64,000 nucleotides of DNA, from the NCBI GenBank assembly GCA_905178155.1, contig CAJINV010000004.1, positions 9,710,625-9,774,624 of the forward strand. Reading direction: 5' to 3'. Numbering within the stretch: the first letter of the stretch is position 1; every line of letters starts with the position of its first letter. Both the position numbers and the translations under genes were made by a program. Under the pieces are notes generated by a model. That model saw only the letters and a list, made by a program, of their open reading frames with translations, ran no database searches and was not told the DNA's origin. This DNA comes from Amoebophrya sp. A120. Taxonomy: Eukaryota > Protista > Dinoflagellata. Of the stretch, positions 19,166 through 63,300 are shown piece by piece.

Positions 19166-21259
19166 ATCCCCTGATGAACAATCAGGCAGAGCTGCGGGTC
19201 GCGACCGAGAGGGAGCAGCCAGTCGTGTAAGAAAATTTTGTCACAAAAATAGAAACATTTGCATAGTCGTGCTACCTTTATCAATCTTAGATTAATCTCA
19301 ATGTAGAAGTGTCCAAAGCTGGAAAAGTGTTTACCTCTCGTGATTATATTTGAAAAAAAAACAATATATAATATACCAAAACTGTTGGACTTTGAACACA
19401 CCTGCCACACTGAGCGAACAAAGCTCCTACCTTCCGAGGTCTTTCAATCACCACAAACGCTTCAATCTCTCAGCAGACAGGGCGAAAGCCTCTGGCTGCG
19501 TTGCGTCCTGTGAGGATTCATCATTCAAGGCCCGCGGTCATTCGTCATACATCATCTCATCGCAGGCTCTGAGGCTTCAGGTCTCTAGGTATTCTGGGAC
19601 CTATTTCCCACTCTGCATCTTGAGACTTGACCGAGGAAGGAGATCCCTGATAGAGTTTTGATCAAGGTTTTGGCCAGATTCTGGGATCTTGGGAGGTCGG
19701 CCAGATCGATACCGTAGAAGCCTGCGTAGGTAAAGTTTCGATCTAGGGCGGCCGTCCTGGGTAAAGTTTTAGCAAGGACGGACGTCCTAAGTAAAACCCT
19801 AACCCGGGAGCTACCAAGCCTGAGGACAAAACCTGAATCATCTGAGGAGCCTGATCTGCTCCCGGATCTCCTCAGCTCATCGCTTGCATTTGGGGAGCAG
19901 GCATGTCGGGATCTCATAGAAGTTGCAGTCTTGCGTGGAGGTAGGGTTTGGATCACATGACCAACAAAAACCAAGAACAGGAATACAGCAGCAAGATGAA
20001 ACTTGAGCAAAAGCGTCGAGAATAATAAATCGTCACCATGCCGCTTTTACACGACCGACCGAGCACCTGCACCCACGAAGATGAGCAGAGAGTGACACTC
20101 ACACTCCTCGTCGTTGAAGGCCACATCTTGTAATATCAACATTAGCATACAATGCACCGGAGCTACTCAGCTGAGCGTAGGCAACACAAGTTGAGATTTT
20201 GGAGATATAGACACACAGCAAGACCAAGAGTCGCAACCTCGTTGGCTGGGTGCAGAAGGAAAATTTTTGAAAATGGAAATGAATCAATATGAAACCTTCG
20301 AGTGGCTGTATCATGTTGGTACAAAGAGAAAATCCTCCAAGAAACAAGAACCTCCTTTAATACGCAACGCTCTGTGCTGCGAAGTCTCTCACTAGTGAAG
20401 GTCTTGGCCAGTCGTTTGAAAAGTAAAAGCGACTTCGGTCCTAACATTGCCGCAGCAACAACATGTGAAATCGGTTTCTAATTCACAAGCATAATGTTAT
20501 CCGTGATGGCATTGTTGTGTCATTGGTCATGTCGGTTCTTTTATTTTGGGTAGTTCTACGTATCATGTCTTATGCGCAAAACATAGCCAGCATTCGATCT
20601 TCGTATCTCAAGAATGTCTTCCGTAAAATTACTGTCCAGGTCGTGCAGTTTTTTCCCCGGCGATTCCCACATGTCTTTAATGAAGATTTACGTGTAATCA
20701 AAAACGAAGAGCACTCCTATCTGGGAGTTCCTACTGCAGTAGTTTACCACCAACATTTTCCTTTCTTTTTCGAAGATCGTAAGAATTGCTATCAAGTGAC
20801 ACTAACGTCCCTCTATCGGTAGAGTAGTATTCGTACTCCGAATCGTCATCGGTATCGTACGCGTACTAATTCGTATCGTTCAGCAAGCTAGTCGTAATCG
20901 GTGTGCCAGCGCAATAATTATCTGTCGTGCTATCGTATATAGGTCGTGCTATGCATCGCGCCATCGCAGTAGCAGTACCATCGTTGTACCACCATGGGTC
21001 CACTCGTGAACGCATAACGTCAGGTGCCTTGAGTCAACTGGCAACTTGCATTCCCACTCTAATAAAGTCACAGCGTTCCCGCCGTTGTACGGTTCTACTT
21101 TTGGAGGGTCAGCAAGGTGTTCCCCTTCCCACATTTTCCTTACAAGAAGACTATTAGCAGTAGCATCTTCACACATCACAGCGAGCTCCAGACTGTGTTC
21201 AAGAATTTCTTCAACAGTGAGTGCTTTCTACGCAACATCGTAAACTATTCCCAAGAGCC

Positions 21260-39580: not shown

Positions 39581-41284
39581 GGAGATTTCATCTTCACTCC
39601 TGCAGACTGTGCTTGTTCCACGGTACGATTTTTTGGAGAAAGCATCATGGTCTTGGTCATGCGTCGAGTGGCTCATTGATTTTGTCGCATTGAAACAAAA
39701 GCGCAGCTGCTCCTAATTTTTTTTTTCCAGCATAATTAAGTATATAGGGAAGAGGTAGAGGAGTAGCCTGCGTTTTTGTTGCTCGACAGATTATATGGGC
39801 ACATCAGCATACACATACTTGTCGGGAATTCGCTTTGACTAACTTATACGAATCATACACACAAATCACTAACTTGCCATGCAACTACAAAATTAATCTC
39901 TTTTCTCACAACAGCAAAGTCTTTTGAAACATGATAAGCTTGTCGAGGCTGTCGAATAGAGGAATGTCGGGCTGCTCAGGTGGCAGGCATTGAATTCGAA
40001 GCTGGCAGCATCTCCCAAGGCAACGAGTAGCACAAAAAATAAACTCGCTGCTTTATCTGCAGCGGATGTAGACAGTGAAGAGAGAGGCCTTTGCTTCAGA
40101 ATCAGAAATTGTTCAAACTCCTACACTTTCATTTTCGAATATCAATATTGATCCCTGCGGACATTGATTGTGATTGTTGCCCAAGAAGAAGCCAAAAGTT
40201 CATAAGGCCACGCATTCCCTCACTTCGGTTTTTTGATTTTTTTCTGAACTATTTTCTTGCATGGATAAGTATCAAATGAGCGCATGACCACGACGCCAAT
40301 TTCTATCGTGCGCTCCTTAGTAGCATCAACGACCACGAGCAAGGACTTCAAGAAATCGGTTCGAAGCAAATCTTCTAGAAGAACGGTTCAAAGATGTTTT
40401 TGAGCAACTTCCACTTGTTTCGGTATTGAAACTAGTACGAGAAACGCAGACAAATTGTTTCGGTCACGAGGCGATCAAATTTGAAATTTTGAGGACACGA
40501 CCGGGTCTAGAGAATTTCTGATTGAGATTCTTGCAAGCAGTAATTATGGTTATAGTTCAGACACAGGATGAATTTAGATTCACATGGACGCCGCAAGACA
40601 ACGCGGTCGCGCACCTAGTACAAGTAGCACTTGACTTGCCACTTGAACAGCACTGCGAAATTTGACAGGACCACTGCCCCAAAATGAGCATAACAGAATT
40701 ACTATAGGCTCTACATATATTGAACTAAGTTCCGATAGAGAAGAGAACATTTTTTCCATGATCACACCTTATTTTGCGAGGCCCTTTTTCTCGCTTTTCA
40801 AAGGTTTTTCTTTTCCTGAAGAGTACTGCTTTGACTTTCTGGTGCGACCTTTTTTTCTCTACCGTCTACTTACGAGGTCTTATGTCGTATTTTTGTTGAT
40901 CTAAGCACTTTCTTGGCTTTCGCATTAGTCCACGACGCAGCGCGCAGATAAATAGGAACCTGAACAAATTTAATCCTGTCCTTTATGACCTCATAATATC
41001 AGTGCGAAGTAGTTTTCACTCTGTGCTTATTTGTTTCGATTTTTTTGTCACACAAGTGAACAACATTTTACCACATCACGCATAGCACATCAACATCGCA
41101 CATGAACTACATGATAAAAAAGATGGCGAGTAACCTTTTCGGACAGGGCCGGAGAGCCAAGCACGACAAGTTGTTCCTGATTTTTATGCAGCGGCTCTAC
41201 TTGTGCCTCGAACTCGATCGAAACAACAAGTTCTGCGTCGAGAATTGTTAGTCTTCCGCATCGTCCGCGACGGCACCTGCAGCC

Positions 41285-44200
41285 ATGGAAAATGTATCTG
41301 CGGACATGGTGAAAAATTACCAGGGCCATTTAGGTCGTGATGACGAGGACCACAACGGCGAACAACCCGATGCGAAAAAACAGCGGAGAGATCATGATCT
41401 TCGGCACGTGTATTCCTCTTCCAATTCCTCCCTTCTTGGTGGGGCGTCCTCGTCCGATTTGGCGGGTAGTGGAAAAGACGCGTACGAGCAGGACTTTCTG
41501 CTAACGCACCGAGGAAAAGAGAAGGTGTATGGCAGACGAGGCAAGGAAGATGGTTCTACCTCGGCTACGGCTACGGGTCGTGTCGCACGAGGAGCCCCCC
41601 GACGGGATGAAGAGGAATCTCGTACAGGAAGAAGTGGAAGCAGCAGGTACTGGGCAGCTAGTACTCAAGACCACAAACGTGCTGCACGAGAAGGAAAAAT
41701 ATTACCAGCTGGTGCAGGAGACGAGTCTCACGCCGCACGAGAGGTCGTGGACCACGATGCGAAATCCGCCGGCGCCACTTCGAGAGTTTCCTCCAAAATC
41801 TCTTCCCGCCAGAAAATGTTTGCGCAACAAATGTTGAATATGCGGGGGCAGCCTGGACAAGTACCCGCTCCGTCTTCCCGCAGCTGGTACGACAATCTCT
41901 CCTTGTACCGCTACGAGGCCCTGTTTGAGCGGGTAGCGCGGGACCTGGAAAACAACAGAATTACTGGCATTGTGCCGGACGACGCGGTCATTCAAGACGA
42001 TCTGCACACGCAGCCGGGAAGCGAGAACAGCTCGGTGAAAGAGGAAGACGGCCTGGATGTTGGCAGCGTGTCCGCTACGGAGGAGGAAACTGTTGAAACT
42101 GGTGCTAGAAATGATGTCCTCGTAGTACGGGATCGTCAGCTTCCTCCTGGCGAGGAACAAATGAGAAACAGTACAACTAACGAGCCCACGTCGAGAGCGG
42201 TGAGTCAGAGCCGGAACATTGAAACCCCTGGAGGAGGTCCCCCGCACAATCAACATGACGGCTCAGAAATGTCCCCGGAGGAACTGGCCCGGTTGAGGAG
42301 ACTGAAGAAGCGAACGCAAAACCGGAGCAAAGAGTTCCGTTTGGACAAAAACACGAGATCCGGAAGTTCCGACTTATTCAACAGGTCCAACAGCATCAAA
42401 TTGCAAGGTCTCATGCGGAACAAAAGCAGGAGCACAACCAACAGCGATTATAATTTCTTGACAAACCAACTTGCTGTCGCGACAGGTGGAGGTGGAGCAC
42501 AATATCGAGAACCAGCGAGTGAAGATTTCCCCGACTTGCTTTCCAGGTCGGGAACGGATTTGGATGTGAGGCAGACGGACATGTTGACGCGGAGCGGCTC
42601 GAATCTGAGTCTGACTGCGGGAGGAGAACATCATGGGCTGCTCCCGCAGAGTGGTTCTTCCGATCGCGCTGGTAAAGTGCCAAAGAAAAGCAATAAGCAT
42701 AAGCTGATGAGGTTTCCCACGAATTTTCAAGCGCCGGTGCTGGGGTTGGCGATTTTGCGGTATGACGACGAAGACCAAGATGAACAGGAGGAGGATCATG
42801 TCGGCGAGCATGAGCAAACAGACAGGAACGATGTTGCAGCTCCTTCCCGGCAAGAAATGACACAGAGTGCTGGCAGTGGCACACCCCCCTCCGATGCCTT
42901 GTTTTCCTCCGGAACTTCCGCAGATGTTGCGGCCCAGCAAGATGTGGACGTGCACACACTACAACAAAGCATAACTGCGACGAATTGTGACGAGAATGCC
43001 ACCAACCTGGTTCCCACGGTGAACTCCACCGAAAGTACCAGTTTCAACTACTCCAAATCGTCACAAAAACCGCTCAAAATGGGTGTTGCAACTCCCGAAG
43101 ACGACAAGGGTTGTGGTCTCAAACCGCAGTCTGTGTATGACATTGTGGACCTCTCCTCGACTCCTGGGTTTCTGATCGACGAGTATCAACATGGCAGTAT
43201 GGAAGGAATAATGCCCAGCGACGTAGAGGAAAAGAAGAAGCACATGAAGAACTACAGTTCGGATATAGATAAAAAACCGACCTCTAGTATCTCTTCAACA
43301 TCTCCTGATGATAGCGCCGACCTTTGTTCGCGAGGTAGAGTTAGCACCGAACTCTCAGAGGGACCTGACGAAAGCGCCAGAAGTAGTGTCTCCAAGGAAG
43401 TAGGGCAAGAGATGATTATAAGCGACACGACAAACACGCCTGCTGGGACAACTGGTAGCACGACCACAACTACATCCGGCCTTACAGACCCCGCGGCTGT
43501 TGCGGCACCACATCTAAAATCCACTCTTCTCTCCACGAATCTCGCGCCCCAAAACGCGTTCGACTTCAGCCTCCGGTCTGTTTCCGCTCCGGCAAACAAG
43601 CGAAGGCTGTCGACGCCTCGCAGGTCCCGACCGGACAGCGAGCTGACGCGCACCTACAGCCGAAAATCGGTATTCCGCATGCACAGCCTGATGCGGCAAG
43701 ACAGTTTGGCCAGCGGCAGGAGTACCAGTAGGCCCGCGTCCACTACAGGAGCATTAGCCGAGGTTGACCCGATAAAATCGCTCACTTTCGGAGGCTTGGG
43801 ACTGAATTTCGCAAGTGCTGAACAAGCTGCAGACTCCAGCACTGGGACCATAGGAGCGTTTCTCGCGAACTCCGCCCCTGGTAGCGGGACCATGAGCGGT
43901 AGTTACACGACCGGAGTTGGAGATCATGATGCCTACAACACACAAGAACACGCATTCCCAGACCAGCCGAACACCTGGCATGGCGGCAGTGCGCGATTCG
44001 AGCGGCAGCTGGTGGATCTTAACGCGCTTTTCGAGCACCGAGAAGAGGACGAGGAGGGAAAAATCGTGAGTAGATCGGGTTCACAACTCGAAGGCACGAC
44101 GACGCAGCTGGATGATAAAAGTAGTGCAGGAACAAGCACTACTTCGGGAAAGAACATCCTCGCTAAGCCTGTATCAGAAGAAGCTGTACAACTATCACCA

Positions 44201-47200
44201 GTTGTATTGCCTAATAACGCAAACGTCAACGGGTCTTCTCCCGTCGTCTCCGACAAACGGGACGTTTCGACTGCGACGAATAGCACCGCGGAAGTGATGG
44301 GCGTGGTCTCCACTTCTCCGTCCGAGACGAGTAGCGCAACCGCAAGCCCAATTTTTCACAAGAAAATTGTCGCGGTTCTTTCATCCCAGCAGCAGACGCC
44401 AGCTGCAGTAGATGATGTCGGTAAGAGCACAACATCAGATAATGTTCTTGCCAACTCGCAGCAGCTTCTTTCCCCTGTCATCGAAAAAACAACCTCACTC
44501 GGAACAACTAGCACAACCGTTGTTCAACAAAATTCTCCGGCGTCCTATGGTGGTGGTAGTGGTCCTCAGCTCCTTCTTGACGGGGGTTTAATCGGAGGAC
44601 ATCAAGATGAACTGGCGCAAACTATCGTCCCGCAAGGCGTCGTGGCCGCGCAAGCAAACGCCACGCCCGCGGCGGACTACCCGCTTGTGCTCGAAAAGGT
44701 CCAGGGGCTAACGCCGGTGGTGGTGTATGAATGCAGCGTGGTAGAAGAAACAAACCGGAAGCCGTTTCCCGACGAGGTTTTGAAGGCCTTCGCGACCAGC
44801 TTGCAAAAGCTGAACAACGACGACAATGTGGGCTTCATTTCCGGCGAAGACGGGTTGATGTCCAGCCTGCAGGTCTTAGCCCACCAAGTGACGAAAAAGC
44901 CCTGCTGCATGTCGCCGCTCCTCCTATTGCCCACGTACGCGCGCTGCTACCGCCCGGGTTCGAAGTTTCTGATCTGTACCGTGGGCTTGGAAAACGACTC
45001 CGTGTATCTGAACATTGCAGATTTGGCGGAGCGCGCCGGGTACACGGAGCAAAGGTTCCGCGATTTGTTTCTCATCGAACGGTTCGAAGACATCTTGCTG
45101 CAGTCCCAGGATGATTTGGAAAAGCAGGGGGAGATGATACTGGATCGGATCTGCTCCAAGTTCCGGGGCATCTTTCGAAGATCGACAGCAAACGGCAACT
45201 CAATCCTCACCCAAGAACAACTCCCGGAAGCACAAGCAGAAGGTCCTGGTGCAACAGGCGCCGCCATCCCGTTATTTCCAAGCGTTAGATCTACTTCTGG
45301 GAGCAGAACGAGCATTGGTGCGGCGGATGGTGCAGGTGGAGTAGTACAACCAGGTGAAATGGAAAGCGAGAATGCTGCTAAAACAAAAGCAGGCATCGTG
45401 CGAGCAAGTGAAAGACCCGGGGGCGAGGGGGAAAATAATAATGAACAAGAACATCAACCGCGGAAAACAACAAGATCGTTGTATCACAGTGAAAAATGCC
45501 CCCCACACCTGAAATTGCAACAATTTGTGATGCGAAGTTTCCAAATGAAAGCTTTTTGTCATGCATGAAAGGAGTAAGAATCTTTCTGATGCAGATTCTA
45601 GTCGTGTTTCGCATCGCTTGCATGACAAGCACCGCTCTTGCTGGGATCTTTTGCAATACAAATTTTTGCTATTCACGATCGGAAATCTGTGATGCTGATA
45701 CACGCAAGAGGGCGAGTGTTTCACTTGGAAAGATTTGCAATACAAATGCTTTCAAGTTCGGGGGTGGGGGCATTTTTCATTGTAATACGTTGCCCCGTTG
45801 CTCTGGAATTTTTGTCGAGTGTGCGGAAATGATATTGTGAGGAAAAATCCCCCCATCCCATATTGAAAGCCTATGTTTCTGAAAATTTGTCTTGCTGATT
45901 TGAGGTCACAAATCGCATTCGTCTTGCAAGAAGACAAGGTGAGAAGCTTCCGCCTCATTATGGAAGCGGTTTGTCATGCTGTTGGACCTAAAGGGGAGCC
46001 GTTTGCCATGCTGAACAACTAGACCAATACGCCCCTACCGAGCCGGGGGATCTGGCCGCAATGCCTCTCTGCATCACAAAGCTGAATTGTGTACACAAAT
46101 CCAGCATCAGAAATTCCGTTTTGATATGGGGAGGGGGTATTTTTCCTTACGATAAATGACGGTGCACAGTGACCTGTTGAGGGAGGAGCTAGGGGTCCCT
46201 GTGTGGGACATGGTGTCTCTTTCCCACGCTTTGATGCTCGGGTATTTGGAAAACCCTCTTTTTGGCAGACTGGGCTGGCAGGTCCACGGGAGTGGTGGCA
46301 CTGCGACTGCTCCAGGCCTTGTTCTGACGCAGGATATGCAGCCACAACAACTCAATGACCTGAACGCAGCTGGTGGTGAAGGTTCAGAGGAGTTGCTGTC
46401 CGAAATAAATGCTGCTGACAACGACAAACCGGTGCACAACGAACCCTCGGTGGACGAAAATTATTCCATTGTTCCAGACACCACAACGATGACCACTGGC
46501 GCTGTTGATGTCGACCATTTGGTGAGGGTGAACAGACGGAAGAGCATCACTAGACATTTCTCCGTGGCAGGCAGCAGTTTTGTTCACCAAAAGGACGACC
46601 AAGTGGAACAAAATCATCTACTTCATCTTCAAAATGTTGAACTAGACTTACGACCCTCTGTTGCCCAGCTCGCTTCCTGGGCTGGGAACAAACTAGTCGA
46701 CGATGAAGACAGAGCGTGCTACGCTGCGCAGCGGGACCAAGTGAAGGCCCTGATTGATTACATCTTGGCGGAGAATAGGAAGCTTGTGTTTGATGCTGCG
46801 ACCTCTAGGCCACGGACGGCGAGTGGCAACGTGATCAATCCGGTAGTTAAGCTTTTGCCGGAAAGCGCCACGTTTTTGAGCACAACGAAAAAACAGCTGA
46901 CCAATTATGCAGTAGATGCAGGAGTGCAGCTGTCCTCCGACGTTGTTGATCATACGTCGCAAGAAGTAGGAGGTGCGGCCAACACTTCTTCTGCTACTCC
47001 TGCACCTCCAACATCTTCAGCCACTACAACTTCCTCCTTTCAGCACCCGGCGCTCGGGTGTCTCCGCCTAGACTCTCTGTACCGCCCCGCCGCCGGGGAT
47101 GTGGCCGACCCGCGGTCGCACGAGTTCGCTTTGGTGAATCGGGTGGTTCCTGGATTAACTTTCGAAATGTGCCGGTCGGGCACCTTAACGGCGGAGGTGC

Positions 47201-50200
47201 GGCGGAACTTTGCCCGGGCGGTGAAGTATCTCGACAAGCACCCGCAGGTGAAGGTGATAACCGGGGATTGCGGGTTCATGATGTTCTTCCAGGAACTGGC
47301 GCAGGCGTTTACGCGCAAACCGGTGTGCATGAGTAGCTTGATGCTGATCACGGGGCTGAACCAATTCATCCACCCGGACAAGCAGATCGCGATTTTGACG
47401 GCAAACTCCACGGACTTGGAGGATTTGATCCCCGTCGTGTCGCGCGTTTGCGGGGTCGGATTGCAGGCGTTCGAGACGGATTTGGTGAAGGAAAACCGAG
47501 ATTTGGCGAGCTTCATCTCGGCCGCAAGCTCCCAGGCGAGTTTTATCCCGAGGGGGTTGATGGGGCCAGGATGGGGTGCTGCACCAGGAGGGCCTCCAAG
47601 AACGCCGAGTGCGATCAGCGTAAGTTCGGCGACTGCAGGTGGTGGAGCTCCAGGAGTTTCAGCCAGTGCAGCGGTGGTTACGACCTCCCAGCAGCCAACG
47701 CAGGATACGGTTTTTGAGGGAAAAATTCTGGAAATCGGAGCAGCTTCAGACGGGAAAGACAAGCTGAGCAGACCACATGCGCAACATCAAGACTGGCAGG
47801 AAAAGCATGACGTCGAGAACCAGATGTACCAGCAGAGCATGCCAGACCGTGATCTTCCAGCACGTGAAGGAGTATTGAACAATCCGCCGTCGCAGCTGGC
47901 GCAATCCTGTAAGACCCCACCTCTTATTGAAGAAAATATTACCCTCGGGACGACACCAATTTCAACTCCGGGTAGAGGTGGTGCCAGGAAAAAAGTAGAA
48001 AAAGGAGCTCCTAAAAGTACTGCCTCCGCAAGCAACCCGCTTTCCCGCACCCTTTCCAACTCTTCTGACCGATCTACCTCGAGGATAAACAACAATAACG
48101 CCAGCAAAAGTGATAGTGGTTCTACTACTGCCAAAAATAATTATGCGGCGGATCCAAGTTTCCTCGACGCGGTTGCGACGAAATTGAAATCAGAACTGGG
48201 ACAGCAACTCGTGGATGAATTTTACAACAGTTTAGGGACGAATGGGAGCGACGATAAAATCTTCACACCGGACGAGCAGGGCGACCCGGTGCAGCAGCTT
48301 TCGAATGCGATATTACCTGATCAGAAGCAAAACCTGTCAATATCTTCCGCATCAAATTCAAATTCTCAGTCGGCCGGCGGCGGCACCAGCGATGAAGTAA
48401 GTTTGAATTCCTCTTCGAAGATGAAGAAGAAGGCGCTGCGTCGCATGGACTCACCGATGCCGGAAAGTTTCGTAAAGCAGACGTCTTCGTCTACTACTTT
48501 CGGGTCTTTCCGCTCTAACATTTCCGGCGTGGTGGTCCTAAACACAGCAGGTGGACAAGATCAAGAACAGCGCCCGACGTCAAACTCTTCAGGAGATTCG
48601 CTTCGTGTGCCGGCCTCGAGCCCGAGGGACGACGTTGATGAGGAGGACGATCATGAGGGTGTACTAGCACTTTCTCTACTTCGTTCTCAAAATTATTCCA
48701 CGACCAAACTGGGTAGATCTTCAAAGCAGGAGGACATCCAGACTACACTTTCCTTTTTAGCCGGAGGAACGATCTCAGGAACTGCGACCTCCTCAAGCAG
48801 TCTCTCAGGTGCTGGGACGAGCACCAGCAATACGGAACAAGAATATATCGCCGCGAAGACCAAATCCGAAAGTTCCTCGTCGACTGCTCCTCCTAAAAAT
48901 AATGTAGTAGTGGTTCATGCGATGCAAGATCGAGAAATTCTCGAGGAGCCATGCCCGGATGCAGAAGTGAATCTTTCGTTGGCGAAGCAGGAGAAAGAAA
49001 TGATCAACAGTAGCAGTAGTTCTACAAACAATAAATCCGCCGACCCGTTTGTCCGCAACATGCTGACGGAGGAGGAGGAGGAAACGATGCTGATCAAAGG
49101 AATCCTCTCCCGCTCCACCTCTCTCCAGGCCGCCGATGTCTTCGGCGAAAAGCCAACCACCATGCGAACGCTGAAGCAGCTCGCGGCGGATAGGACCACT
49201 AGTCCCTACGACAGTCCGGGGGCTGGGCAGCTGGTTCGCCAAGGCGGCGCTGGGGGAAGTAGCAGTGCAAATATGTTTACAACTTCTCCCGGCGGAGAAA
49301 CCCCTCCGTCCGAAGAGGACGATATCGTGCCGATAGAGATTGGGAACAGGAACACGAGAAGTACAGAGAGTGCTAGTAACAAAAGTAGGTCCACAGGAAA
49401 TCGTCCCACTACACGAGCGTCGTCCACGACCCCCTCCCACAAAGGACCCAGTCCTGGTCACAGTGACTCGTCTGTCGGGCGGGCTACCGGGACCGTACAT
49501 GACGGTGATTTCAGTTGTCCCGCTGACGCAACGACGAACTCAGAAGAGGACCACGCAGCTGCTTTAGTACGGACGAGTACAACAGTGGACGAGAATAAAG
49601 GGGGTGTTGACATCAAGGAGAAGTACAGAAAAAGGAAGAACCTATCCTCGACCGCCGGTTATGCAAAAAATAAAAATCCCGAGATATACATCAACACGAG
49701 CGACGGCCAAGGCTTCAAGTACATGCCGATGCCACCTGCCGATAATAATTTCAGCGGCACATCAGGCTCCTGCGATACTTTCTCCGACACGAAGACGCCG
49801 GACTACTTGCCGAGCCCGCCTTTTGAGCCGATGCGCGTGCCAAGACTGACCAAGGAAGAACGGGAGTTCTCGTTAGATCCCTTCACCATGTCTGACCTTA
49901 GCTTCTCGACCACTTCCAATTCCATTTCCGCCTACACGACAAATTCCCTTTTCTCGCAAACGAACCTCACGAATTACAATTCCCAAATCATCAACCCCAA
50001 TGTAGCTGTGAGTCCACGGGGCGGGGGCGGGCCGCCGTACGAAGCCAGCACGACCAGCAGCGGCCGCCCCAACACCACTGCCTCGGGGGCCGGCTCCACA
50101 GCCGGGACTACGAGGGGTGTGGTGGCGCGGCGGCCAGACTTCCCCGAGGAGCGGATCGAGGAAGATGTGGACATCGCTTACTCGGGTCTGAAGAACAACG

Positions 50201-53200
50201 TGCAGAGATACGATAAGTTTAATGACATTGCGCGGGTGGACACAAAAAAACTACGAGCAGTAGAGAAGCTCCGAAGTGTAGTCGCCGGTCCTGCTTCACC
50301 ATGTGGGAGTTGTGACAACAATATGGATGATCATGTTGCAGTTGCCGGCTCAGGCTTATCTTCTGCTGCAGCTGGCTCCTCTTCGACGTCGAATATATCG
50401 CCGCGGGGCGGGGTTGACATGTTTCAGCCTGGGAAATTGTTTGAAAAGGTGAAGCTGCAGGAAAACGCCACTCTCAAATTCGAGAACAAGGGGCTCGTGG
50501 TCGGGGACGTTCAACATCTTGACAACGAAATAGATTGCAAGGACAACAACAGCACTTCTACCCAAGAAGACCCTCCGCACGACACCGTTATTACGCCGCA
50601 GCGGAAGCAACTTCAGCTCATGATGCCGGGGTTCGATACCGCAGAGAGCTCTTTTGTTTCATCTAGTACCGGCGCAGGGGGAGATACAACTGATACAACT
50701 GACTTGTTGTTCCCTAACTACGTAACCGGGAAGAATATGAAACACACTACATGCAGCACCGCGACTGAGGCCGACGTGACGCCCAGCATTGTCGCCGGGC
50801 GGGTGAGCGTTTCCGAGATCGACGAAATCGACCGAAGAAGAGCGCACCAGAAGGGCTTTAGCAGCGAACACCCGCTCGTGATTCTGGATCGCGAGGAGGC
50901 CGCGCGCAGAAACGCGGCGTTGCCGACCGGCGGCATGATTGACCCGACCCGTGACTTGCCGTTTGCATTCAGTCCGCACGGGAGAACGAGGGCTGATCAA
51001 GTCGACCAGCAGCAGCAGCAGCCGGGTGCTGGCACTGTTCCTTCTTCGCTGGAAAGCAGCTCCTCATTATTTCGGGGCAACAATGTGGAGAATCCGTTCG
51101 CGAATTTGATGATCAAAACCACTTTTGGCGGTGGGAACAAGACGAAGACTCCTGACGCAGTTGATGTCCGAGCTGCTTCTACTACAGTTGTTCTCTCGCA
51201 TCAAACCACGAGTAAAAATAGTACTGCGATAGAAGCGCTTGCTGGAGCTACCCCTGCTTCTGAGGACACGACCAGCACTAATCAAGTAGACAAGCGGCTC
51301 GAAAGTTACAATAGCACAGGCACAGCAAGCTCCGTTATAGGCGCTCCGGTAGGTGGAGTTGTTGGTTCTGCTGCGTTCGTCCCTCGTGTACTTTCTTCCC
51401 CGCTGGCCGGCGTTACTCCAGTGCATGAACAAGTAGAAGATGCAGAGTCGCATGACGAGGCGCAACAACAGCACGTAGAGTCGCCGCTACACCAGACGAG
51501 AACCGACCTAGGGGTCATAAGATCAGTTGGAAATTATAACACCAAGAACAGCCCAGAACAAGAAGTTCAGAACATCAACAACAACCCCAGAACCTCCAAC
51601 CGTCGGTCAACCTTTTCGTCCTCCGACGACATCCCCTGCCTACCCCGGACCAGCGACACGACGGGTAGCAAGGTGAATTCCCCCAGTTGGGCTATCACGA
51701 CCGCGGAGATCCTCGGCGTGGACGTGGCGACAGACATTGGGCTGCAATCAGATTACACCGATGACGGGTTTTCGCCGGGGGAAAAAGCGGCGTTGCAGGT
51801 TTTGGTGCTGGAGAAGGGCGGCTTAGCGGCAATCACCGAAGATCAGGCGCTACCCGACGATTTGCCCGTGCACATGACTTATCAACTGCAAAAATGTCTG
51901 GGTCTGGAAGATTGCAACTTGTCATGCTAAATCTGAAGCATGCAAAAATCTGTGTTGCATGATTACCAAAAGTCGTCCAGTTTTAACCAAGTCGGGAGGG
52001 AGTTTCTCATGCAGGATAGGCATGAGAGAGATCGCATAGAATCTGTCATGCTAGGTCCTGCATTCCAGACCTCATGGGTCATGGAAAAGCTGCGTGACAA
52101 ATCGCGCATTCTTCCAGACCCAGACTCTTTTACATTTGATATGACAACCAGCCCGGCGATTCCACCGTTTAACCCGAAGATGAACAATATGACTGCCCTG
52201 CAGCCTGGATCATTATCTTGGACAGGTCGTGGTGCAGCCAACAAGGATTTCGATGGTGCTGCTGGCAATATCGAAACTACCTTCAACATTCCGAATGCCT
52301 TGATAGAACGAGAGCATCAACGGGAAGTAGAGCACCACATGCTAATCGAAGAGCAAGCTTTTATAGAAGACCCGCTCTTTCATCTTACAAATACAAGTCC
52401 GCCGCCGGGTGATCTTCAGATGCTCCACATGATGTCCTCACCATCCTCCCCACCGTCGCTCGCTCTATTGTCCAAAACTCCGAGCGAGCAGGCACGGGAC
52501 GCACACTTACGGGAATTTTTAGCGCGGAACCCGCACGAGCACGAACTGGCCAGACGTCAGCGTACGGACTCGCAGCAGGACCAAACAATTGCCGAAACAG
52601 GTCGGATCGCCGACTTGCCTGGGGGTGGAGCAGGAGCAGGGAACAATAAGGATGAGGATGAATTTTCTGGTCACCACGAAATAAACAGTGGCACGCAACA
52701 ACTTCCGGGGCAGCAGACGAGTGGGAACATGCAACTTCTGGACCCCAGAGTTGCCCTGGGAACGACAAGTCGAGGCGCTCCTATTTCATTTCCGGGTCAA
52801 GATGACGCACCCAAGGATCATGCGCAGGAGCAGGTGGACCGCAAGAACAGCAGCAACATGCTGTCTAGAACTTCTTCTGGGCCGCACAATGTTCATGATC
52901 AGCAGCAGCATCACAGCACGTTCATTTCACATCCCTCCACCACCATCCACTACCCTTCCCTGGCGTCGACGGAACGCGGGGGAGGTAATAATTTGTTGCA
53001 AAAGACGAAGTCGAACTTGTCCGTTGACAGCTACTCCGACGCAGAGACGATTGTGCCCGGACAAGAAGGTCCAAGCTCCGGGGGAATATTAAACAACAAC
53101 GATTATTCCAACGTGAATTACCACCTGCAAAGTGTCGACGAACTGGTGGAGCGCGCGACTGGGCAGGCACTGTCTCCGCATAGCAGCTCTCGTCCTGGGA

Positions 53201-55690
53201 GCCGGGAAGCCTCGCAGATCAGTGCTGCAACAGCTGGGGGAAATAAAGGGAAAGACCTACCATTAGCTGGCGCAAATAAAGGACAACAGATGACATCACG
53301 AGATGCAGCCAAGACCAAGAGCAAAGACGATTTACTTCTACTCGGCAGTACTTCTGAGGGTGCCGTAGTAGAGCAGTTGAAGCACGACGAGAGCCAGCAC
53401 GCGATATTCAAGGAAGAGCAAGACGATGTCGACAATGTCCTCGCCACGGGCACGGTTAATTACTGGGGCACGCTACTGGGTCCGAGTTCGGAGATGGTCC
53501 GGCAGGCACGGTTTGTAGGACAGAACAAGCCGCTGCAGGATTTTTTGTTGGAAATTGAGCAAGAGAAAGAACAGATGTTGGTGAAATCCAAATCACATGA
53601 CGAGAATTTTGCTGGTGTAGCTGATCTTCAGGGCGAGCATTTACACGCTACGCCGAGCAGAAGTCCTAGTGCCAGCCCGGCAGTTCCTGTAGTTCCACCC
53701 TTGAATCAAAGCCAAATGAAACTGCTGCCCCGGACCGTTTCCACGCAGAGCAACACTACGGCTGCTGGTGGTGATATGGATGTGTCAGAGTTGAAATCGA
53801 CAGAGTTGAAATAACTTGTAATGCATGAAATCGATACCAGTCGGAAACCCAATTTCCAAGCGGCGCATGACAAATTTGAGTAGAGCCGAAATCCAGTTTG
53901 TCATGCTCTTCGGGTGAGACAGATGCCTTTTGTCATGCTACTTTAGCAGCTCTATTTCTACCCCGAAACAGGCTTACAATCTGCCTCCTGTGCCTACTCT
54001 GCAAGACAGGCATTTTCTTTGGTGCATTTTATGCATGACAAACTATTTCAACTTTGACGATTTCAAACCTGACGCTTCCATAGGTGACCTGCACCAAACT
54101 GCCCTCCAACGCCAAGTGTCTGGCCTGGAACTGATGCTTGGAACTTCTATCAAATGTAAAAATGTCTGGGTCTGGAAGAGTGCGCGATTTCTCATGCAGC
54201 TTTTCCATGACCCACGAGGTCTGGAATGCAGGACCTAGCATGACAGATTCTGCGCGATCTCTCTCATGCCTATCCTGCATGAGAAACTCCCTTCCGACTT
54301 GGTCAAAACTCGACGATTTTTGGTAATCATGCAACACAGATTTTTGCATGCTTCAGATCTAGCATGACAAGTTGCATTCTTCCAGACCCAGACATTTTTA
54401 CATTTGATAACTTCTACACAAGGACAAGATCACCGACTACAGCACAACGTCTATGGTTCCACCTCATCACTATCCGCTCTGTACCAGCATATCCCGGTTG
54501 CGGCGCCATCCAGTGCAGGAGCAGCTGGCGCAGCTCATCTTGGCGATCACAGTTACAACCCCTATGATTTTTCCCTGTCTCCGGGTGCTTTCGGACCACC
54601 AGCCGCGACGGTTATTCCAGCGAACCTGAACATCGGTGACCCCTACCCGACGGACTTCACCAGCATGCCACTGTCCCCGACGGCCATTCTGGCTTACCAA
54701 AGACAGAAATTTATTGGAGGTTCCTCCCAACACTCCGTTTCCGGAGAAAGTTTGAATAGCTTCGGCCGGTCCACGCAGGTGCGGGGCGGGGTGACCACAG
54801 GAGCAGCTTCTTCCGTCGGAGGGGGAACTGCTCCTGGCCCACCTTTTGCTGGTTTGGTCCGCGCAGGGACAGCAGGAGCATCGAAAGGAGCTCTCTCGGA
54901 TGCAGGCATGACAAACTACACCGGTTACACTGGAGGTTTGCAGTACAACCCGGCCGCAGCACGCGAATCCCAAGTCACTACTCCGAGATACACCTATGCG
55001 GGCTTGTCGGACCAGATCAACAGCGTGGGTCCGCATTTTGGCACGGAGCTTTCGCACCTGCAAAGTAGAGCCTTTTCCACGGAGGTCCATTTGGGAGGAG
55101 GTGGGCAACATCTTGCAGGTACTACAGGAGCAGCTCCTGGTGGCGGTGCTGCTAAAACGAGCACGACATCGCAAGTTGCTGCAGTAGAGCCGGTCGCCCG
55201 GCATATTGACCGGCAGCGGTTTGTGGTGATGGGCATCGAGGACTTGCCCAACTTCGACGGCATTTCCAAGGGCTACCCGCTGCAATTTCACAACTGCGAG
55301 GAGTTGCTGATCCAGAAGATCCAGCGGCTGATGGACGCGCATCCGGACATCGACTGCTTTCTGGTCGAGTGCACGCAGTTGCCAATGTTTTCGGATTCCC
55401 TGCGGGCGTTGTTCCAAAAACCGGTGTACGACATCACTTCCGCGGCACACATGATGATGCTGGGCTTCCAAACCACGCCGAAATGTGACGACGAGCTGTA
55501 CAAAATTGAGGACGCGCAGCCGTACTGCTTCGGGATGGAACTGGGCGCGAAAGACCGGAGGAAGTGCCTGGAATTGCAACGGTTTCGCGATTTGTTCGAC
55601 GAGGCCGGGATTCCGCTCGATAAAGATGCTGAAAGTGGTGATGAAGCGGAGAACGAAACAAGGAGGGACGACAGTCGAGCAGGCTTCTAG
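41285..55690 (+). CDS. Giant (~4,306 aa) protein with two split Alma-family (DMSP lyase / Asp-Glu racemase superfamily)-like domains in low-complexity sequence; 5 introners
   Basis: ORFs 41285, 46156, 51940 and 54404 join after excision; motifs LGCLRLD..AGDVADP..RVVPGLTFEMCRSG..ITGDCGFMMFFQ..KPVCMSSL..IAILTAN and FLVECTQLPMFSDSLRALFQKPVYD; degenerate first copy ISGEDGLM..KPCCMSPL..FVECAEM..GVPVWD. Confidence 0.8.
45482..45787. mobile_element. Introner, family A-like (TIR TATCACAGTGAAAAATGCCCC)
   Basis: DR CGTTG. Confidence 0.9.
45833..46154. mobile_element. Introner family A (reverse orientation)
   Basis: DR AATGA. Confidence 0.9.
51880..52141. mobile_element. Introner family D
   Basis: DR TGACT/TGACA. 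Confidence 0.9.
53775..54082. mobile_element. Introner family F (reverse orientation)
   Basis: DR GGTGA. Confidence 0.9.
54148..54409. mobile_element. Introner family D, near reverse complement of 51880-52141
   Basis: DR ACTTC. Confidence 0.92.
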
Positions 55691-57316: not shown

Positions 57317-60300
57317 ATGGAGCATCATCTCCGGGAAGTGGCCATGCGTTCCAACACGCGGTCGTTTTCTATGGCGTTCTCAAACGTTACATTCTCAACT
57401 GTTACACGATTTGTCATGCAAAATGAGCATCAAGCTCCGCACGGTGAAGCTAGTTCGCATGACAAATTTTGGAATAGCTAAACACCATGGATATCTGTGC
57501 CAAATTTGTAATGCAAGAGTTGCAAGCTCCGGCCTTTCCCTTTTGCCATTCCAGCATCACAAATTCATGTAACAGTTGAGAATGTAACAGTTGAGGACGC
57601 CATATTTTCCGCCGTCGCGGGCAAGCGGGCGTGGAGCGATCCGCAGACACACTGGGCCGCCGCGACCAAGCGCCCGACCACACCTTCGTACCGGACCGCG
57701 CGCATGGGCGGCTACAACACGAATCACGACGGGACCGCCCGACCGGGCACCAGTCACGGCACCGGCACCGCGCACCAGAACGCGACGCATCACGGTGGGT
57801 ACACGACCACCACGTCTGGCGGGCATTCCAACCCGACCGGGTTGCCCAGTGGACGAGCCAGTTCTTCCGGCGCGAATCACGCGGGGGCTGGTTCCCATGC
57901 GGGCGCTGCTGGTGCTGCCGCTGCGCACCAGACAAACGATAAAATCGCCAACCACCGGGTTCTGCATTTGCTCTCCAAGCGTCCGCACTCGGCCTTTAAC
58001 ACGAACCGGAAGCGCGCGGTGCGACCCGTGGCGGTAGGCGGGGAGACCACGGCGCACGGAGGTCATCATCACGGCGCGCAGCACCACGAGCGGAAAGTGC
58101 GGGAGCGACCGAAAAGTGGCGACAATTACCACCACCGGACTTTTCACCACGCGATGAACGCGACGGTGCCGGCCGATGCGACCTATGCCATGAACCAAGG
58201 AGCTGGTGCTACTGGCGTCACTGGCACTGTATCAACTGCAAATATGTCTGGGTCCGGGAAGTTTGGACTTGTAATGCTGGTCTTGCATCCCTATGGAATC
58301 TGTATTGCATGATCAACAAAAGTTGCAGCCTCTTTGTCTTTTGTCATACAAAAACGCAGCTTCTCGTGCGGGCTGTGCATGACAAAGCGTTATGGGAATA
58401 AGTTGTCATGCTTGGCTGCAGTCGGCAGTGTTTCCATCATCCATATTTTCGCATCACAAGTTTCCAGACGAGACGTCCAGGGATATTTGCATTTGATACA
58501 CCGCCGCGTTGAATAACAACACGGACAACGTGATTTCCACGGCTATGGACTACCGCCGGTACATGGACGAGAGACGCCGGATCCAGGCGGAAAAACGGCA
58601 CCGGTTGAACAACCTGCACCAAACGGAGCACTTCCACGCGGCTGGGGCGGGTGCTGCGGTGGCCAAGATGAACCACATGAACCATACTGCAGGGGGGGAA
58701 ACTATGGAAGCGTCAGGTTTGAAATCGACAAAGTTGAAATGATTTGTCATGCATAAGATGGATACCAGTTGGAAACCCAATTTCCAAGCGGCGCATGACA
58801 AATTTTCCGAGCACTGGAATTCAATTTGTCATGCTGTTTGGGCACAGACGACCGCTTTTGTCATGCTCCTTTAGCAGCTCTACTTCAAACCCTAAACAGG
58901 CTGACACTCGGCCTCACTTGCCATCCCGGCAAGACAGACACTCCACGCCTTGCATTTTATGCATGGCAAATCATTTCCGTGAGCGCAATGAGTTGGTACG
59001 TTGGCGAACGTTAAACGTACTCTGTTGGCAATAAGTTGGTTTGTTGGCGAAAAGTAAGGTTTGTTGGCGAACAATAAACGCATCCGTTGGCGCAATGTAA
59101 GGATCGTTGGCGAACGTTAAACGTACTCAGTGGGCGAAAAGTTGGACTTGTTGGCGAAAAGTATGGTTTGTTGGCGCAAAGTAAGGATCGTTGGCGAACG
59201 CTAAACGCATGTTGGCGAAGTGAGGACTGTGTGCGAAAGTAAGGAAAAGTTGGCGTAAGTGGGATCATGTGCCCGAGGATGATGGTGATGGCTTCGGTCC
59301 GCCTGACTCCACGACCTGGTGGCCGAACCATCTGCGGTGAGGTGCCCTTGCAGGTTGTGTAGTGGTTTCGGTCGGTTTAGCATGGCAAATCATTTCAACT
59401 TTGACGATATCAAACCTGACGCTTCCATAGAAACCTCGTTCGGGGGCGCGACCGCCTCTTCTCGGCCGGGGACCGCCGGGGCGAGCGGCAATGCAACCGC
59501 GAGTTCCGCGTCGAAGACGGCGGCTTTCCAGCAGCAGAGAGCGAATTCCAGTTCCGCGACGGAGGAGGACGTCGACGGGGTGTCTACGAGATCCGGCACC
59601 GTACACATGGGCAAGACCGCGTCGACATCGCTAGCGTCCTTGACGAACCTCCGGGACCAGATTTCGAACTCGAATCAGAACGCGCTCTCCACCTCTTTAA
59701 AGCACCAAAATGTCGTTCTTGGAGGTACTGCTACTGCTGACGCGGCAAGCCGGCCCAATACCGCCGGCGGGGCAGGAGGTTCTACACCGACAGGGTCGGG
59801 GGCTACGGGCACTACCGCGTTGCCATTTACCACAAATTTGGCGAGCTCTTCTTCGTCTTCCATGAACCAAGCGGGCTCCAGGACTGGTACAGGCTTGGTG
59901 GATAACGCCGCGATGGACCACCAAAACAAATCTTCCGGTAATGGTGCCCAGCAAACCACCACCGCGCAACAAGCCACCGACAGCACGGGATCCGTCCCGC
60001 CTCTCGGCTCCGGCGGACAGGGAGCGGGCGCACAGTCGAAGCAGACGCGGCAGTACGGTGAGCCGATCACGCTGCGGGCCCCGACGGGCACGTCCGGGGG
60101 TGGGCCAGCACAGTTGGACACCGGAATGGCGGCGCGGCCCACGACTGCACCCTCCGGTGCGACGAAACCCGGGAAACAGGCGGACGCGCAGGCCGCAGAG
60201 CAGCAGCAAAACCGGCAGCACGAATCCTGGCACCAGGACGACGAGCAGGGGACTTTTGGGGGCGCGCTCGCGAACATTAACACCTCTACGACGATTCACG

Positions 60301-63300
60301 ATTACATCATCGGCAAGCAGATCGGGCAGGGCGCGTACGCGACGGTCAGGCTGGCGGTGCACAAGCCGAGCGGCAAGAAGGTCGCCATCAAAATCTACGA
60401 GAAGAGTCGGCTGTTGGATCCCCAGCGACGGAAGTCGGTCAGACGCGAGATTCGAGTCATGGACCGGTTGTCGCACCCCAACATCGTGAAATTTTACGAG
60501 GTCGCGGATACCAGCAGACAGGTAGCTTAAGGTTTGTATATGCAAACCCAACAAGGACAAGCAGCTTTGCTCCTGTTGTAGTTGTTGAAAAATTTCAAGT
60601 TTTCATCTGGATGAAAAGAAAATTCAATCGTGTCACATTTTGATTTGTTTCTACTCACTCCATAAAAATTAATGCTATATATAATCAGGTTTTCCTGGTC
60701 CTCGAGTACATTAATGGTGGCTCCCTCCACTACCTGCTCAAAAAGCGCACCAACCGCCGGTTGTCGGAAATCGACGCTCGCATGATTTTCTCCCAAGTCT
60801 GCGCCGGAATCCGGTACTGCCACGAGCTATGACAGCCTCAGAATGGAAATCCTCAAAGTGGAAATGATTTGTAATGCAAAAAAGCGACTCCACTTGAAGT
60901 GGCGTTTGTAGTCGGCGCATGACAAATTTTCCGGTCACTTAGAGCATCTCTGTCATGCAGGTTGAGGCAAAGGGGTGCCCTCCTGTCGTGCTAAGCAGCA
61001 CTCCAATTCTTCACCCCTAGCAGGACAATAGTCGGCCCCCATTGCGTCCTCTGCAATACAGTCTTTTTTGCGTCGCATTTCATGCATCACAAATCATTTC
61101 CACTTTGAGGATTTCCATTCTGAGGCTTTCATACGAGCGGTTGGTGGTGCACAGAGACATCAAGCTCGAGAACGTCTTGGTACAGTACCCCGATAAAGCC
61201 GTCGCGCACAATATTGTGAGGAAAAATCCCCCCTCCCCATATCGAAAAGGTACGTCTCGAAAAATTTGTAATGCTGATTTGTGACCACAAATCGTCTCTG
61301 TCTTGCAAGAACGCAACCCCATAGGCTGCGCCGCATACTGCAGGCGGTTTGTGATGCTGTGGGCCCTACAGATTAGATGTTTCCCATGCTCAGCGCCTAG
61401 CCCAAAACCTCTCTACTCAAGCTTAGTATAGGCCTGCAGTCCTCTCCAGCAAGACAAAGCTGAATTGCGTATCCAAATCCAGCAACAGAAATTTCCGTTT
61501 CAATTAGACCAGAAAATCGGAAGAAGTACATGTTTTTTTGCGCATCCCCTTGCAACGGGGGTCGCGGGCTGAATGAGGTTGGGGGGTGCGAAGGCGCGAC
61601 CGCGTTCCGGGTTGTTTTATCCCGGAAAAATTAGCCCCCGGCATTGCGGCTGCGCGGCCGGGGCCGGGGCGGGTCGGCTTCCTTGGCGTAGATAGGAAGG
61701 CGACGACACACAGCCAACACCTCGCCACCCGCCCCCACGCTGGGCCCACGTCGGGGACACACAACAGACGCGGCGCGCATCCCGGGGCCCCAAAGCGAAG
61801 CCCTTCCGGGCCCGGAAAAGCTCCTGCTTTGGCTGCGGCCTGGCGCGCCTTTTCCCTTCGTTCCGGGGCCCCGGCCGGCGGGTGAACTGCAGGCCCCCCA
61901 AGAGGCACGCGCGCCTCCCCCTTTCGGAGGGGGGGGGAAAAGGGGGCCCGAATTGGCCCAATTCGCCTCCCTTTTTGAGGGGGGGGGTAAAATGTGCCCG
62001 ATTCTGGCTCATTTTGCCCCCCCCCTGTAGTAGCGGGGGAAGGCCATTTTTTGCCCCCCCCCTAAAAAAGGCGGCAGAATTGGGCCAATTCGGCCCCCTT
62101 TTTACCCCCCCTCCAGAAGGGGGGGCCCGCGCGCCTTCCGGGCCCCCCTTCCCGGCCCCCCAATTGTGGGGCGGCTGTTGTTGCGGCCGAAGCAGGCCCC
62201 ACCTTAGGGGCGCGCGCCCTACTTACTGCTTCGAGGGCCGGCCCCTCCGGTACGGCGGGCAGGCCCATGCGCTTCCGGCAAAAAACATGGCGGCGGCGCA
62301 CCGGCCCGACCGGGACGGGCCCGCGGGGAGGCCGCTTGGTGGGGCGGCTTTTCTCGCTCTTGGCGGGCTTCGAGGTCGGGAGGCCGCCCCGGCTCTCTTT
62401 GGCAAGCCACACCCCCCGAGCCGCTGCATGGCGCAGCGAGGTCCTCGGGCCGGGTGTACTGTCGGGGCACCCCGCCGCCCCCGAAGCGAAACGAAAGCGG
62501 CCCGCCATGCAAGCGGGTGCGCGAAAAAGTATGTACTTCTTCCGATTTTCTGGTCTAATTCAATATGGGGAGGGGGGATTTTTCAGTTTGATACACAACC
62601 AAAACCTGGCCTTGACCAGCTCGGGGCATTTGGACCCGCGGCAGTTAGTTGTCAAGCTGATTGACTTCGGATTCGCGAGCTTGGTTGTGCCGGGGAAAAA
62701 GCTGCGCGTCTTCTGCGGAACGCCCAGCTACATGGCCCCGGAGATCATTCAGAGAAGGGAATATGGCGGGTATGGAATTCATTTTGAACTGTTGTTTTTG
62801 TTATCGCTTCTGACTCGGGATGAAAGGCTGATGATACATCATGATGATAGTAGCTACAGGCACAAAAAACTGCGTGTTGATGGTGCAAGTAGAATGATCG
62901 AAAAGCAAAATATAATCTCTCCGGTGATAAACTACAGTTACTGCGTGGACATCTGGGCTTTGGGTATTCTGCTGTACGCCATGCTTTTCGGGCAGTTTCC
63001 ATTTCGTGGCCAATCGGACAAGGAACTCTACAAGAAGATCTTGAAGGTACAGAATTTTTTTGTGATGTTGCACGAAAGTAGGCATGCCGCGTTTTCATTT
63101 TCTCACTTTCCGCGAGGAGATGCATTGACAAGTTGGAAACTTCTCGAATCAACCAACAATAAATCAGGGCGCCTTCGTGTTCCCAGAGGGCCTCGAGCAG
63201 GAAGTTAGCAAGAACGCCCGTGCCCTGCTCGCCAAGGTTTTCGTCAACATGGAGGTCCGCCCCACCATTCAGAACGTGTCCATGGATCCCTTCTTCTCGG

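Follow-up and report, generated by a model that had tools for sequence, protein, structure and literature searches.

Removal of introner elements of Amoebophrya sp. A120 in both orientations, each with 5 nt of duplicated flank

One gene of Amoebophrya sp. A120 contains two copies of the same short element in opposite orientations, and raises the question of how a gene tolerates an element either way round: whether it is taken out of DNA or RNA, and by what signals. The DNA analysed was a window of 64,000 nt (assembly GCA_905178155.1, contig CAJINV010000004.1, positions 9,710,625-9,774,624), and "the window" refers to that whole stretch throughout. The elements in it are the published introner elements of A120, which have been described as carrying an inverted-repeat motif of TAT, 7 nt and AAA, direct repeats of 3-5 nt, a hairpin and non-canonical ends (Farhat 2021, PMC7789003). 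The window's elements share the genome, the end motif and the direct repeat, and are likewise repeated and removed with non-canonical ends. Both that paper and a 2024 review (PMC11282704) state that the removal of A120's tens of thousands of non-GT-AG introns is an open question, and the Fig. 3 legend of the former leaves the position of the intron borders unknown. Here we report that these elements are removed together with 5 nt, in both orientations and with no conserved bases at the cuts, and are retained in DNA-type contigs.

Sequences from six of 13 sequencing runs were compared with the window (X2, X7-X10, X12 and X13 were left out), in stretches that hold 34 element copies, and the joins reported are those among the joins listed. 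Four runs are RNA-type, a label guessed by a program, and come from two samples of one study. They are mRNA-like: the GT-AG introns at 29820-29971 and 30079-30261 are skipped too, and in run X3 an 11-nt leader-like loose end before the AG at 20638-20639 completes TCAAG, the reported end of the A120 spliced leader (Farhat 2021, PMC7789003); 20638-20639 is a trans-splicing acceptor. Given the leader, the GT-AG introns, a kinase domain and long frames, the genes lie on the + strand. Run X1 is DNA-like: in unique sequence its depth is flat at 44-55, and its contigs extend into elements.

Opposite copies of one element in a single gene

The gene and its five elements are as follows.

41252..55690, + strand: host gene, a 4317-codon stop-to-stop frame once the five elements and 5 nt with each are removed
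45482..45787, no strand assigned: element of 306 nt with no family partner in the window; duplication CGTTG; skipped, with 39 letters between contig pieces
45833..46154, - strand: family A element of 322 nt, opposite to 21722; duplication AATGA; skipped in an RNA-type contig
51880..52141, + strand: family D element of 262 nt with TAT...ATA inverted ends; duplication TGACT (51875-51879) / TGACA (52142-52146)
53775..54082, - strand: family F element of 308 nt, opposite to 24190; duplication GGTGA; skipped in RNA-type contigs
54148..54409, - strand: family D element of 262 nt, opposite orientation; duplication ACTTC (54143-54147 / 54410-54414)

No Pfam match was found in four large exons of the host gene, whose transcript extends to about 56590.

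The two family D copies had been called near reverse complements in a first-pass annotation of the sequence, and 246 of 262 bases are indeed identical after reverse-complementing. Because each copy has its own terminal inverted repeat, 22 nt were stripped from the ends before orientation was called. The reverse alignment of the stripped copies scored 388, versus 32 for the forward alignment and a maximum of -12 in 100 shuffles. The copies are therefore truly opposite and not merely palindromic, and the forward score above the shuffles indicates that element interiors are partly self-symmetric. The same annotation held that both copies must be removed to keep the frame. Removal is needed, on account of two in-frame stop codons in each copy; a frameshift is not the cause, as each removal takes out 267 nt, a multiple of three. 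The family F copy lying between them does shift the frame, with 313 nt removed.

A single 14,417-nt contig of X3 spans 42001-56567 without any of the gene's five elements, and the letters between its pieces (39, 0 and 59) match the predicted small exons. At the first D copy, position 51873 is joined to 52141 with zero letters between, and the right-hand copy of the duplication is kept, as told by its position 5. The second D copy is skipped as well, with the 59 letters of exon 54083-54141 between the listed pieces. A contig from the second sample (X5) is without all three focus-gene elements within its span.

Removal across the window

A scan of the window for inverted ends with flanking repeats, which required a TAT-like end and usually at least 4 of 5 repeat matches, gave 59 candidates. 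Six weak ones (1484, 15585, 26982, 32963, 35526 and 58723) were dropped and two (58703 and 61212) added, leaving 55 curated copies; 15585 was counted in the frame reconstruction and is absent from later counts. The copies are 142-1382 nt long (median 261) and make up 23% of the window. TAT is found at 107 of 110 ends, TAT[C/G] at 101 and the full motif (TAT, 7 variable nt, then at least three A) at 84; in families B and F, all that is left of the A run is the A at position 13. Outside the ends, a 5-bp direct repeat is perfect in 46 copies and has one mismatch in nine, versus a background 5-mer identity of 4 in 1870, although conservation of both TAT ends and repeat is partly built in, because the scan demanded them. 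The duplications comprise 51 different 5-mers, with base bias at no position (p 0.14-0.74). Being short and non-coding, with inverted ends, a target duplication and many copies, the elements resemble miniature inverted-repeat transposable elements (MITEs); as transposon copies they are non-autonomous, bounded by inverted repeats and flanked by target duplications of 5 bp. Their abundance is evident in X1, where 25,177 contigs match one 20-kb stretch and summed depth is concentrated on element bins.

Removing each element with one repeat opens frames of 4317, 1677, 792, 728, 659 and 583 codons, all on the + strand. In the five frames tested, removal of the element plus 5 nt leaves a single, terminal stop in each, whereas removal of the element plus 0, 3, 4 or 6 nt leaves 5 to 103 stops. 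RNA-type contigs join at least 20 of the 34 copies at exactly element plus 5 nt, and the remaining 14 show no join and no retention among the joins listed. In the stretch 11001-31000, the four RNA-type runs give at least 12 joins, each skipping element plus 5 nt.

Both members of three opposite-orientation pairs of family D (51880/54148, 21375/22188 and 23504/25005) are absent from RNA-type contigs, as are both orientations of families A (21722/45833), B (25425/57370), C (22603/26177) and F (24190/53775). The proposal that either orientation is tolerated is thus borne out by opposite copies of five families, both orientations being joined in each and neither staying unspliced. For family G, only 30412 is shown joined among the joins listed. 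The copies referred to here and below are:

21221..26460, + strand: gene holding 11 elements, some in each orientation, whose removal opens a frame of 728 codons; spliced-leader-like loose end at 20638
21722..22046, + strand: family A element; duplication mismatched at position 5, the RNA retaining its right copy
22816..23253, no strand assigned: element of 438 nt; duplication mismatched at position 1, the RNA retaining its left copy
23504..23777, + strand: family D element; duplication mismatched at position 1, the RNA retaining its left copy
58230..58498, + strand: family D-like element; duplication mismatched at position 4, the RNA retaining its left copy
25425..25659, + strand: family B element; duplication TCATC
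57370..57604, - strand: family B element, opposite orientation; duplication TTTTC
24190..24515, + strand: family F element; duplication TCAGC
4925..5077, + strand: family C element; junction peptide found in the public A120 protein P0001
11584..11733, - strand: family C element, opposite orientation; the frame requires its removal, no join among those listed
17718..17927, - strand: family G element; the frame requires its removal, no join among those listed
30412..30622, + strand: family G element, opposite to 17718; join shown in RNA-type contigs
61212..62593, - strand: long family A element of 1382 nt inside a protein kinase gene; duplication CACAA

Opposite pairs had also been proposed in families A, B, C, F and G, and all hold by alignment. 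With 22-nt ends stripped, reverse versus forward scores are 282 versus 106 (B), 173 versus 29 (C), 274 versus 58 (F) and 163 versus 43 (G), and a local alignment of the A pair gives 354 versus 111. What did not hold is the length of 325 nt given to the copy at 61212, which extends to 62593 (1382 nt) with CACAA on both sides. Its interior is GC-rich, internally inverted filler, in which the frames look low-complexity. Removing it together with 60828-61133 restores an unbroken kinase frame, and a Pfam search of 14 exons gave matches in two, both kinase; that the kinase would still need exact removal of a 1382-nt copy suggests that element length matters little. P0001, an A120 protein from NCBI, matches exon 4491-4922 at 100% identity across 144 aa, and contains all six junction peptides that its gene has in the window.

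A second assembly stood in for the whole genome, as 125 loci (457,578 nt) chosen by one 31-nt end motif. Of its 407 candidates, 300 have perfect and 69 four-of-five repeats, and 38 with fewer than four matches were left out; a gene strand was assignable for 134 of 367 excised copies, and a family for 114 of those. With respect to the host gene, orientation is 29:22 in family D, 10:9 in C, 7:5 in E, 10:4 in G, 3:5 in A, 6:0 in B, 2:0 in F and 0:2 in F2. Insertion phase is uneven in this assembly (33, 50 and 71 of 154) and even in the window (12, 14 and 13 of 39); the unevenness may be an artefact of the choice of frame. No orthologous locus that could serve as an empty site was found among the 125 loci.

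The joins by themselves could have another source. Reverse transcriptase slips at repeat-flanked hairpins yield apparent introns, or falsitrons, whose anatomy of hairpin and short direct repeats is that of the present elements (PMC8240250), and every join here is cDNA-based. However, the proteins need removal, with stops inside the elements, long frames only after removal and a restored kinase domain; in the gene at 21221-26460, moreover, 11 of 11 consecutive joins are present in four of four RNA-type runs. The copy at 58230 keeps the left repeat at a mismatch in position 4, at which point just a single base would match in a reverse slip. Because the proteins need removal, we regard it as extremely improbable that the elements stay in place in vivo and the joins are pure artefact, while slips of this kind may add to the junction reads.

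Excision from DNA in the transcribing stage is the second alternative. Internal eliminated sequences of ciliates are lost precisely from somatic DNA, blind to strand and together with one short direct repeat. A DNA-level enzyme acting on pointer repeats in this way would give the orientation-free, precise loss of element and one repeat seen here, and the DNA and RNA runs may stem from different life stages. Whereas the ciliate sequences leave somatic DNA, A120 DNA-type contigs retain the elements. X1 contigs at depth 40-45 cross the boundaries into elements (46135-51905, 52106-53798, 54387-57394 and 57575-58730), with no precise skip among the 15 joints listed, of 690. X1 may be the assembly's own sample, so that this evidence is not independent, and rare alleles drop from contigs, which cannot show that such an allele is absent. 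The second assembly still has elements within genes. Nor is a separate germline nucleus known in this parasite, so that DNA excision would be inherited and would purge the elements. The first-pass annotation had left DNA-level excision as not excluded; the X1 contigs make it unlikely, and taking all points together we rate it as very improbable. Overall, removal is very probably RNA-level and guided by the hairpin.

Splice signals, hairpin and cut register

If both strands carried conventional branch-point and acceptor signals, orientation would need no further explanation. Such signals do not account for the joins. When all equivalent cuts were considered in 54 copies, the ends could be read as GT-AG in one (53775), GC-AG in one, GA-AG in two, AT-AG in two, AT-AC in one and none of these in 47. 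U2-type ends (GT or GC with AG) are thereby available in any register in two of 54 copies, the duplicated flanks have no base bias, and in the second assembly GT/GC-AG is possible in 36 of 369 copies on either strand. The AT-AC of U12-type introns is possible in one of 54, and minor small nuclear RNAs are reported absent in A120 (PMC7789003). No Rfam match at gathering score was found in the window, to group I or II introns or to any other curated RNA family.

The symmetric features that had been named beforehand are present: TAT ends, a terminal stem and an internal motif on both strands. Among the 53 copies below 450 nt that were folded, a terminal stem of at least 10 pairs is predicted on both strands in all 53, with folding energy alike on the two (Wilcoxon p = 0.29), so that both strands share the TAT[C/G] end, the A at position 13 and the predicted stem. 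The internal 8-nt motif, TGT[A/C/G]ATGC, has 162 of its 171 window matches within elements and is mirror-placed, its forward form occurring 15:1 in the first fifth of the element and 0:27 in the last; it could be a transposase site or a splicing-factor site. In the model that we consider, the hairpin, the TAT/ATA ends and this motif would be what is recognised.

Where the cuts fall can be read from imperfect duplications, of which there are nine, five of them seen in RNA-type contigs. A mismatch at position 5 leaves the right copy in the RNA (21722 and 51880), and one at position 1 (22816 and 23504) or position 4 (58230) leaves the left copy. At 58230, contig pieces stop at 58228, with 195 letters to the next piece, in two samples. 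All five informative mismatches fit a cut after the fourth base, so that a single shared register would be 4; in that case the excised piece would consist of 1 nt, TAT...ATA and 4 nt. For the focus pair the predicted pieces are then 51879-52145 (fold z = -8.2) and 54147-54413 (z = -10.7). In this register the first base is any of the four and the last two bases are unconserved. P0001 gives no register information, as its two imperfect duplications yield the same peptide in every register. An exploratory test drew on 193 copies in assigned frames from both data sets, with 37 mismatches. Those at positions 3-5 are synonymous in 15 of 19 cases and those at positions 1-2 in 7 of 18, against roughly 42% on the assumption that one copy is unconstrained (binomial p = 0.001; Fisher p = 0.02; 17 of 25 and 8 of 24 at looser cut-offs). 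The test is a lead only, since the split was post hoc and positions 1 and 2 disagree (6 of 9 and 1 of 9). It hints that the two cuts may move in step, in which case the message could receive either repeat copy.

We propose that a transposase or integrase would insert the element through a 5-nt staggered cut, apparently with no target preference. In the transcript the element ends would pair as a stem, TAT[C/G]...[C/G]ATA, and because this stem looks alike whichever strand is transcribed, orientation would be irrelevant. Cuts would be made about 1 nt ahead of the stem and about 4 nt beyond it, and the two may shift jointly by 1-2 bases within the duplication; lying inside the duplication, they would always give the message back its pre-insertion sequence. 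The catalyst would be something other than standard spliceosome chemistry, which depends on terminal G, A and G.

The proposed removal is like that of the non-conventional introns of Euglena, with which these elements share predicted paired ends at apparently fixed spacers, a longer 3' side, direct repeats and a MITE-like origin (PMC12501133; PMC11282704). In Euglena the tested code is a paired motif, CDG/CHG, whose spacers are N3 and N5-6, and the exon begins with a purine (Nomura 2025, PMC12501133), whereas the A120 motif is TAT[C/G] with apparent spacers of 1 and 4, and the lineages are unrelated. A purine stands at the presumed exon start in 32 of 55 copies against a background of 56%, so that the Euglena preference is absent, and the Euglena-type paired ends appear in 53 of 53 copies as a fold prediction only.

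Because the excised piece has no constrained end base and Euglena has a similar geometry, we favour a dedicated cut-and-rejoin activity, separate from the spliceosome, that would excise the element from pre-mRNA by measuring from the terminal hairpin, and put this at slightly better than even. That U1 was not detected in A120 (PMC7789003) also counts in its favour. The broader claim stands at about an even chance: that A120 has a second, spliceosome-independent nuclear mRNA splicing system, which reads a two-fold symmetric hairpin end, cuts at 1 and 4 nt on any base or strand, and arose independently of that of Euglena. If so, insertion at any site, phase or orientation would be invisible to the protein, a host-level "undo" for transposition.

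Several points weigh against a dedicated hairpin-measuring activity. The outermost TAT/ATA pairs are predicted closed in just 34 of 53 sense folds, and G-U is not favoured on the transcribed strand (35 G-U versus 45 A-C, p = 0.31), so that these counts give no sign of selection on RNA pairing. The register rests on five copies, of which one (58230) sets its lower bound, and presupposes a register common to every copy. Family B is the sole uneven orientation count (6:0, p = 0.03, uncorrected), although its reverse copy at 57370 is nonetheless skipped in RNA-type contigs. The RNA evidence is that of one study and two samples with a guessed label; an excised intron, lariat or circle is unobserved, and contigs are unable to show such forms. 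No transposase was found, long copies lying outside the protein-library searches. Finally, A120 keeps nearly all spliceosomal proteins together with U2, U4, U5 and U6 (PMC7789003).

With so nearly complete a spliceosome, and with U1 undetected, that machine remains a live candidate, rewired such that a hairpin and its binding protein would replace U1 and the terminal GT/AG, with an adenosine of the terminal ATA as branch point. The same transcripts have GT-AG introns spliced, an A is invariant at 5 and 7 nt before the presumed 3' cut, and most families have a U-rich run 15-19 nt before it. Non-canonical introns of Fritillaria are reported to be removed by the spliceosome (review PMC11282704). 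On the other hand, neither end of the excised piece shows base constraint, the long U run is missing from families B and F, and the candidate branch adenosines are predicted to be paired in the stem. Spliceosomal 3' docking relies on terminal bases. We consider a rewired spliceosome possible, if doubtful.

The five informative duplications would be fitted equally by a polymerase that skips the element, where DNA extrudes the hairpin and the nascent RNA realigns from the first to the second repeat in a forward slip needing a matching last base. Such skipping would be blind to orientation and bases, with coupled sliding, but no precedent is known for polymerase skips of 142-1382 nt on a 5-nt repeat. 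In addition, some contigs of RNA-type runs have element sequence that continues into other flanks as loose ends; this suggests transcription of the elements, although carried-over DNA could mimic it. We rate skipping as quite improbable. Archaeal bulge-helix-bulge splicing, with a geometry of 1 and 6 nt and paired flanks, does not fit the proposed cuts of 1 and 4 nt and the direct repeats.

Related systems and further observations

Both the system itself and introners inserted either way round were already known; the orientation-blind, base-blind rule for Amoebophrya did not appear in the literature searched. Relative to the A120 introners of Farhat 2021, we add removal in both orientations, a uniform 5-bp duplication, the element plus 5 nt rule and the proposed 1/4 register. 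In that article "orientation" is used for genes only, in four of four places, and "strand" occurs in none (PMC7789003). Introners of Polarella glacialis and Aureococcus are introns derived from DNA transposons, with target duplications and insertion in either orientation (bioRxiv 10.1101/2020.10.14.339549). They carry or co-opt GT, GC or GA with AG and show constrained duplications and orientation bias, whereas the A120 duplication is unconstrained and a splice dinucleotide unneeded. The method of a 2022 survey allowed for opposite insertions (PMC9860276). In the literature searched, which covers few subscription papers, no report was found on orientation or cut register of Amoebophrya introners.

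Orientation blindness, base blindness and a fixed 1/4 register make the question of removal concretely testable, and explain how elements can fill nearly a quarter of the window without harming genes. For annotation, intron borders can be placed by rule instead of at the nearest GT/AG-like pair, which gives mixed border calls in published tables (Gozashti 2025, PMC12130899).

As to their origin, target duplications of 5 bp are typical of long terminal repeat (LTR) integrases and of Transib. An A120 inverted-repeat family, number 38, has LTR-like frames (Gozashti 2025, PMC12130899). With MITEs and such integrase-like terminal-inverted-repeat elements the window's copies share short length, lack of coding sequence, inverted ends and a target duplication, and the link to family 38 is a candidate one. 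No autonomous partner of the window elements was found, and viral contigs gave no matches.

Run X11 consists of raw reads from another strain, whose matches are element pieces only, at 90-95% identity, with no junction data. At 60828-61133 and 51880-51966 its RNA reads show element pieces joined to other flanks; in this strain, some element copies or fragments stay in transcripts.

Some further copies deserve mention. At 58703-59429, a copy of 727 nt combines family F ends with short repeats arrayed in its interior, and its removal in RNA-type contigs is exact. An X4 contig leaves out 82 nt within a family B copy (11838-11921), and probably represents an internally deleted copy from another locus. 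The first 2764 nt of the window hold a 17-nt tandem array and GC-rich repeats resembling two loci of the second assembly (L006 and L049). Since the first 959 residues of P0001 are unmapped in the window, this stretch probably forms the terminal part of a long intron or element, at least 2.7 kb in size. Finally, 15585-15714 has a decayed left end and a perfect 5-bp repeat, its removal extends a frame, and it has relatives at loci L012 and L071. It is probably a real, decayed element copy, and offers a natural test of how much of the element end is required.

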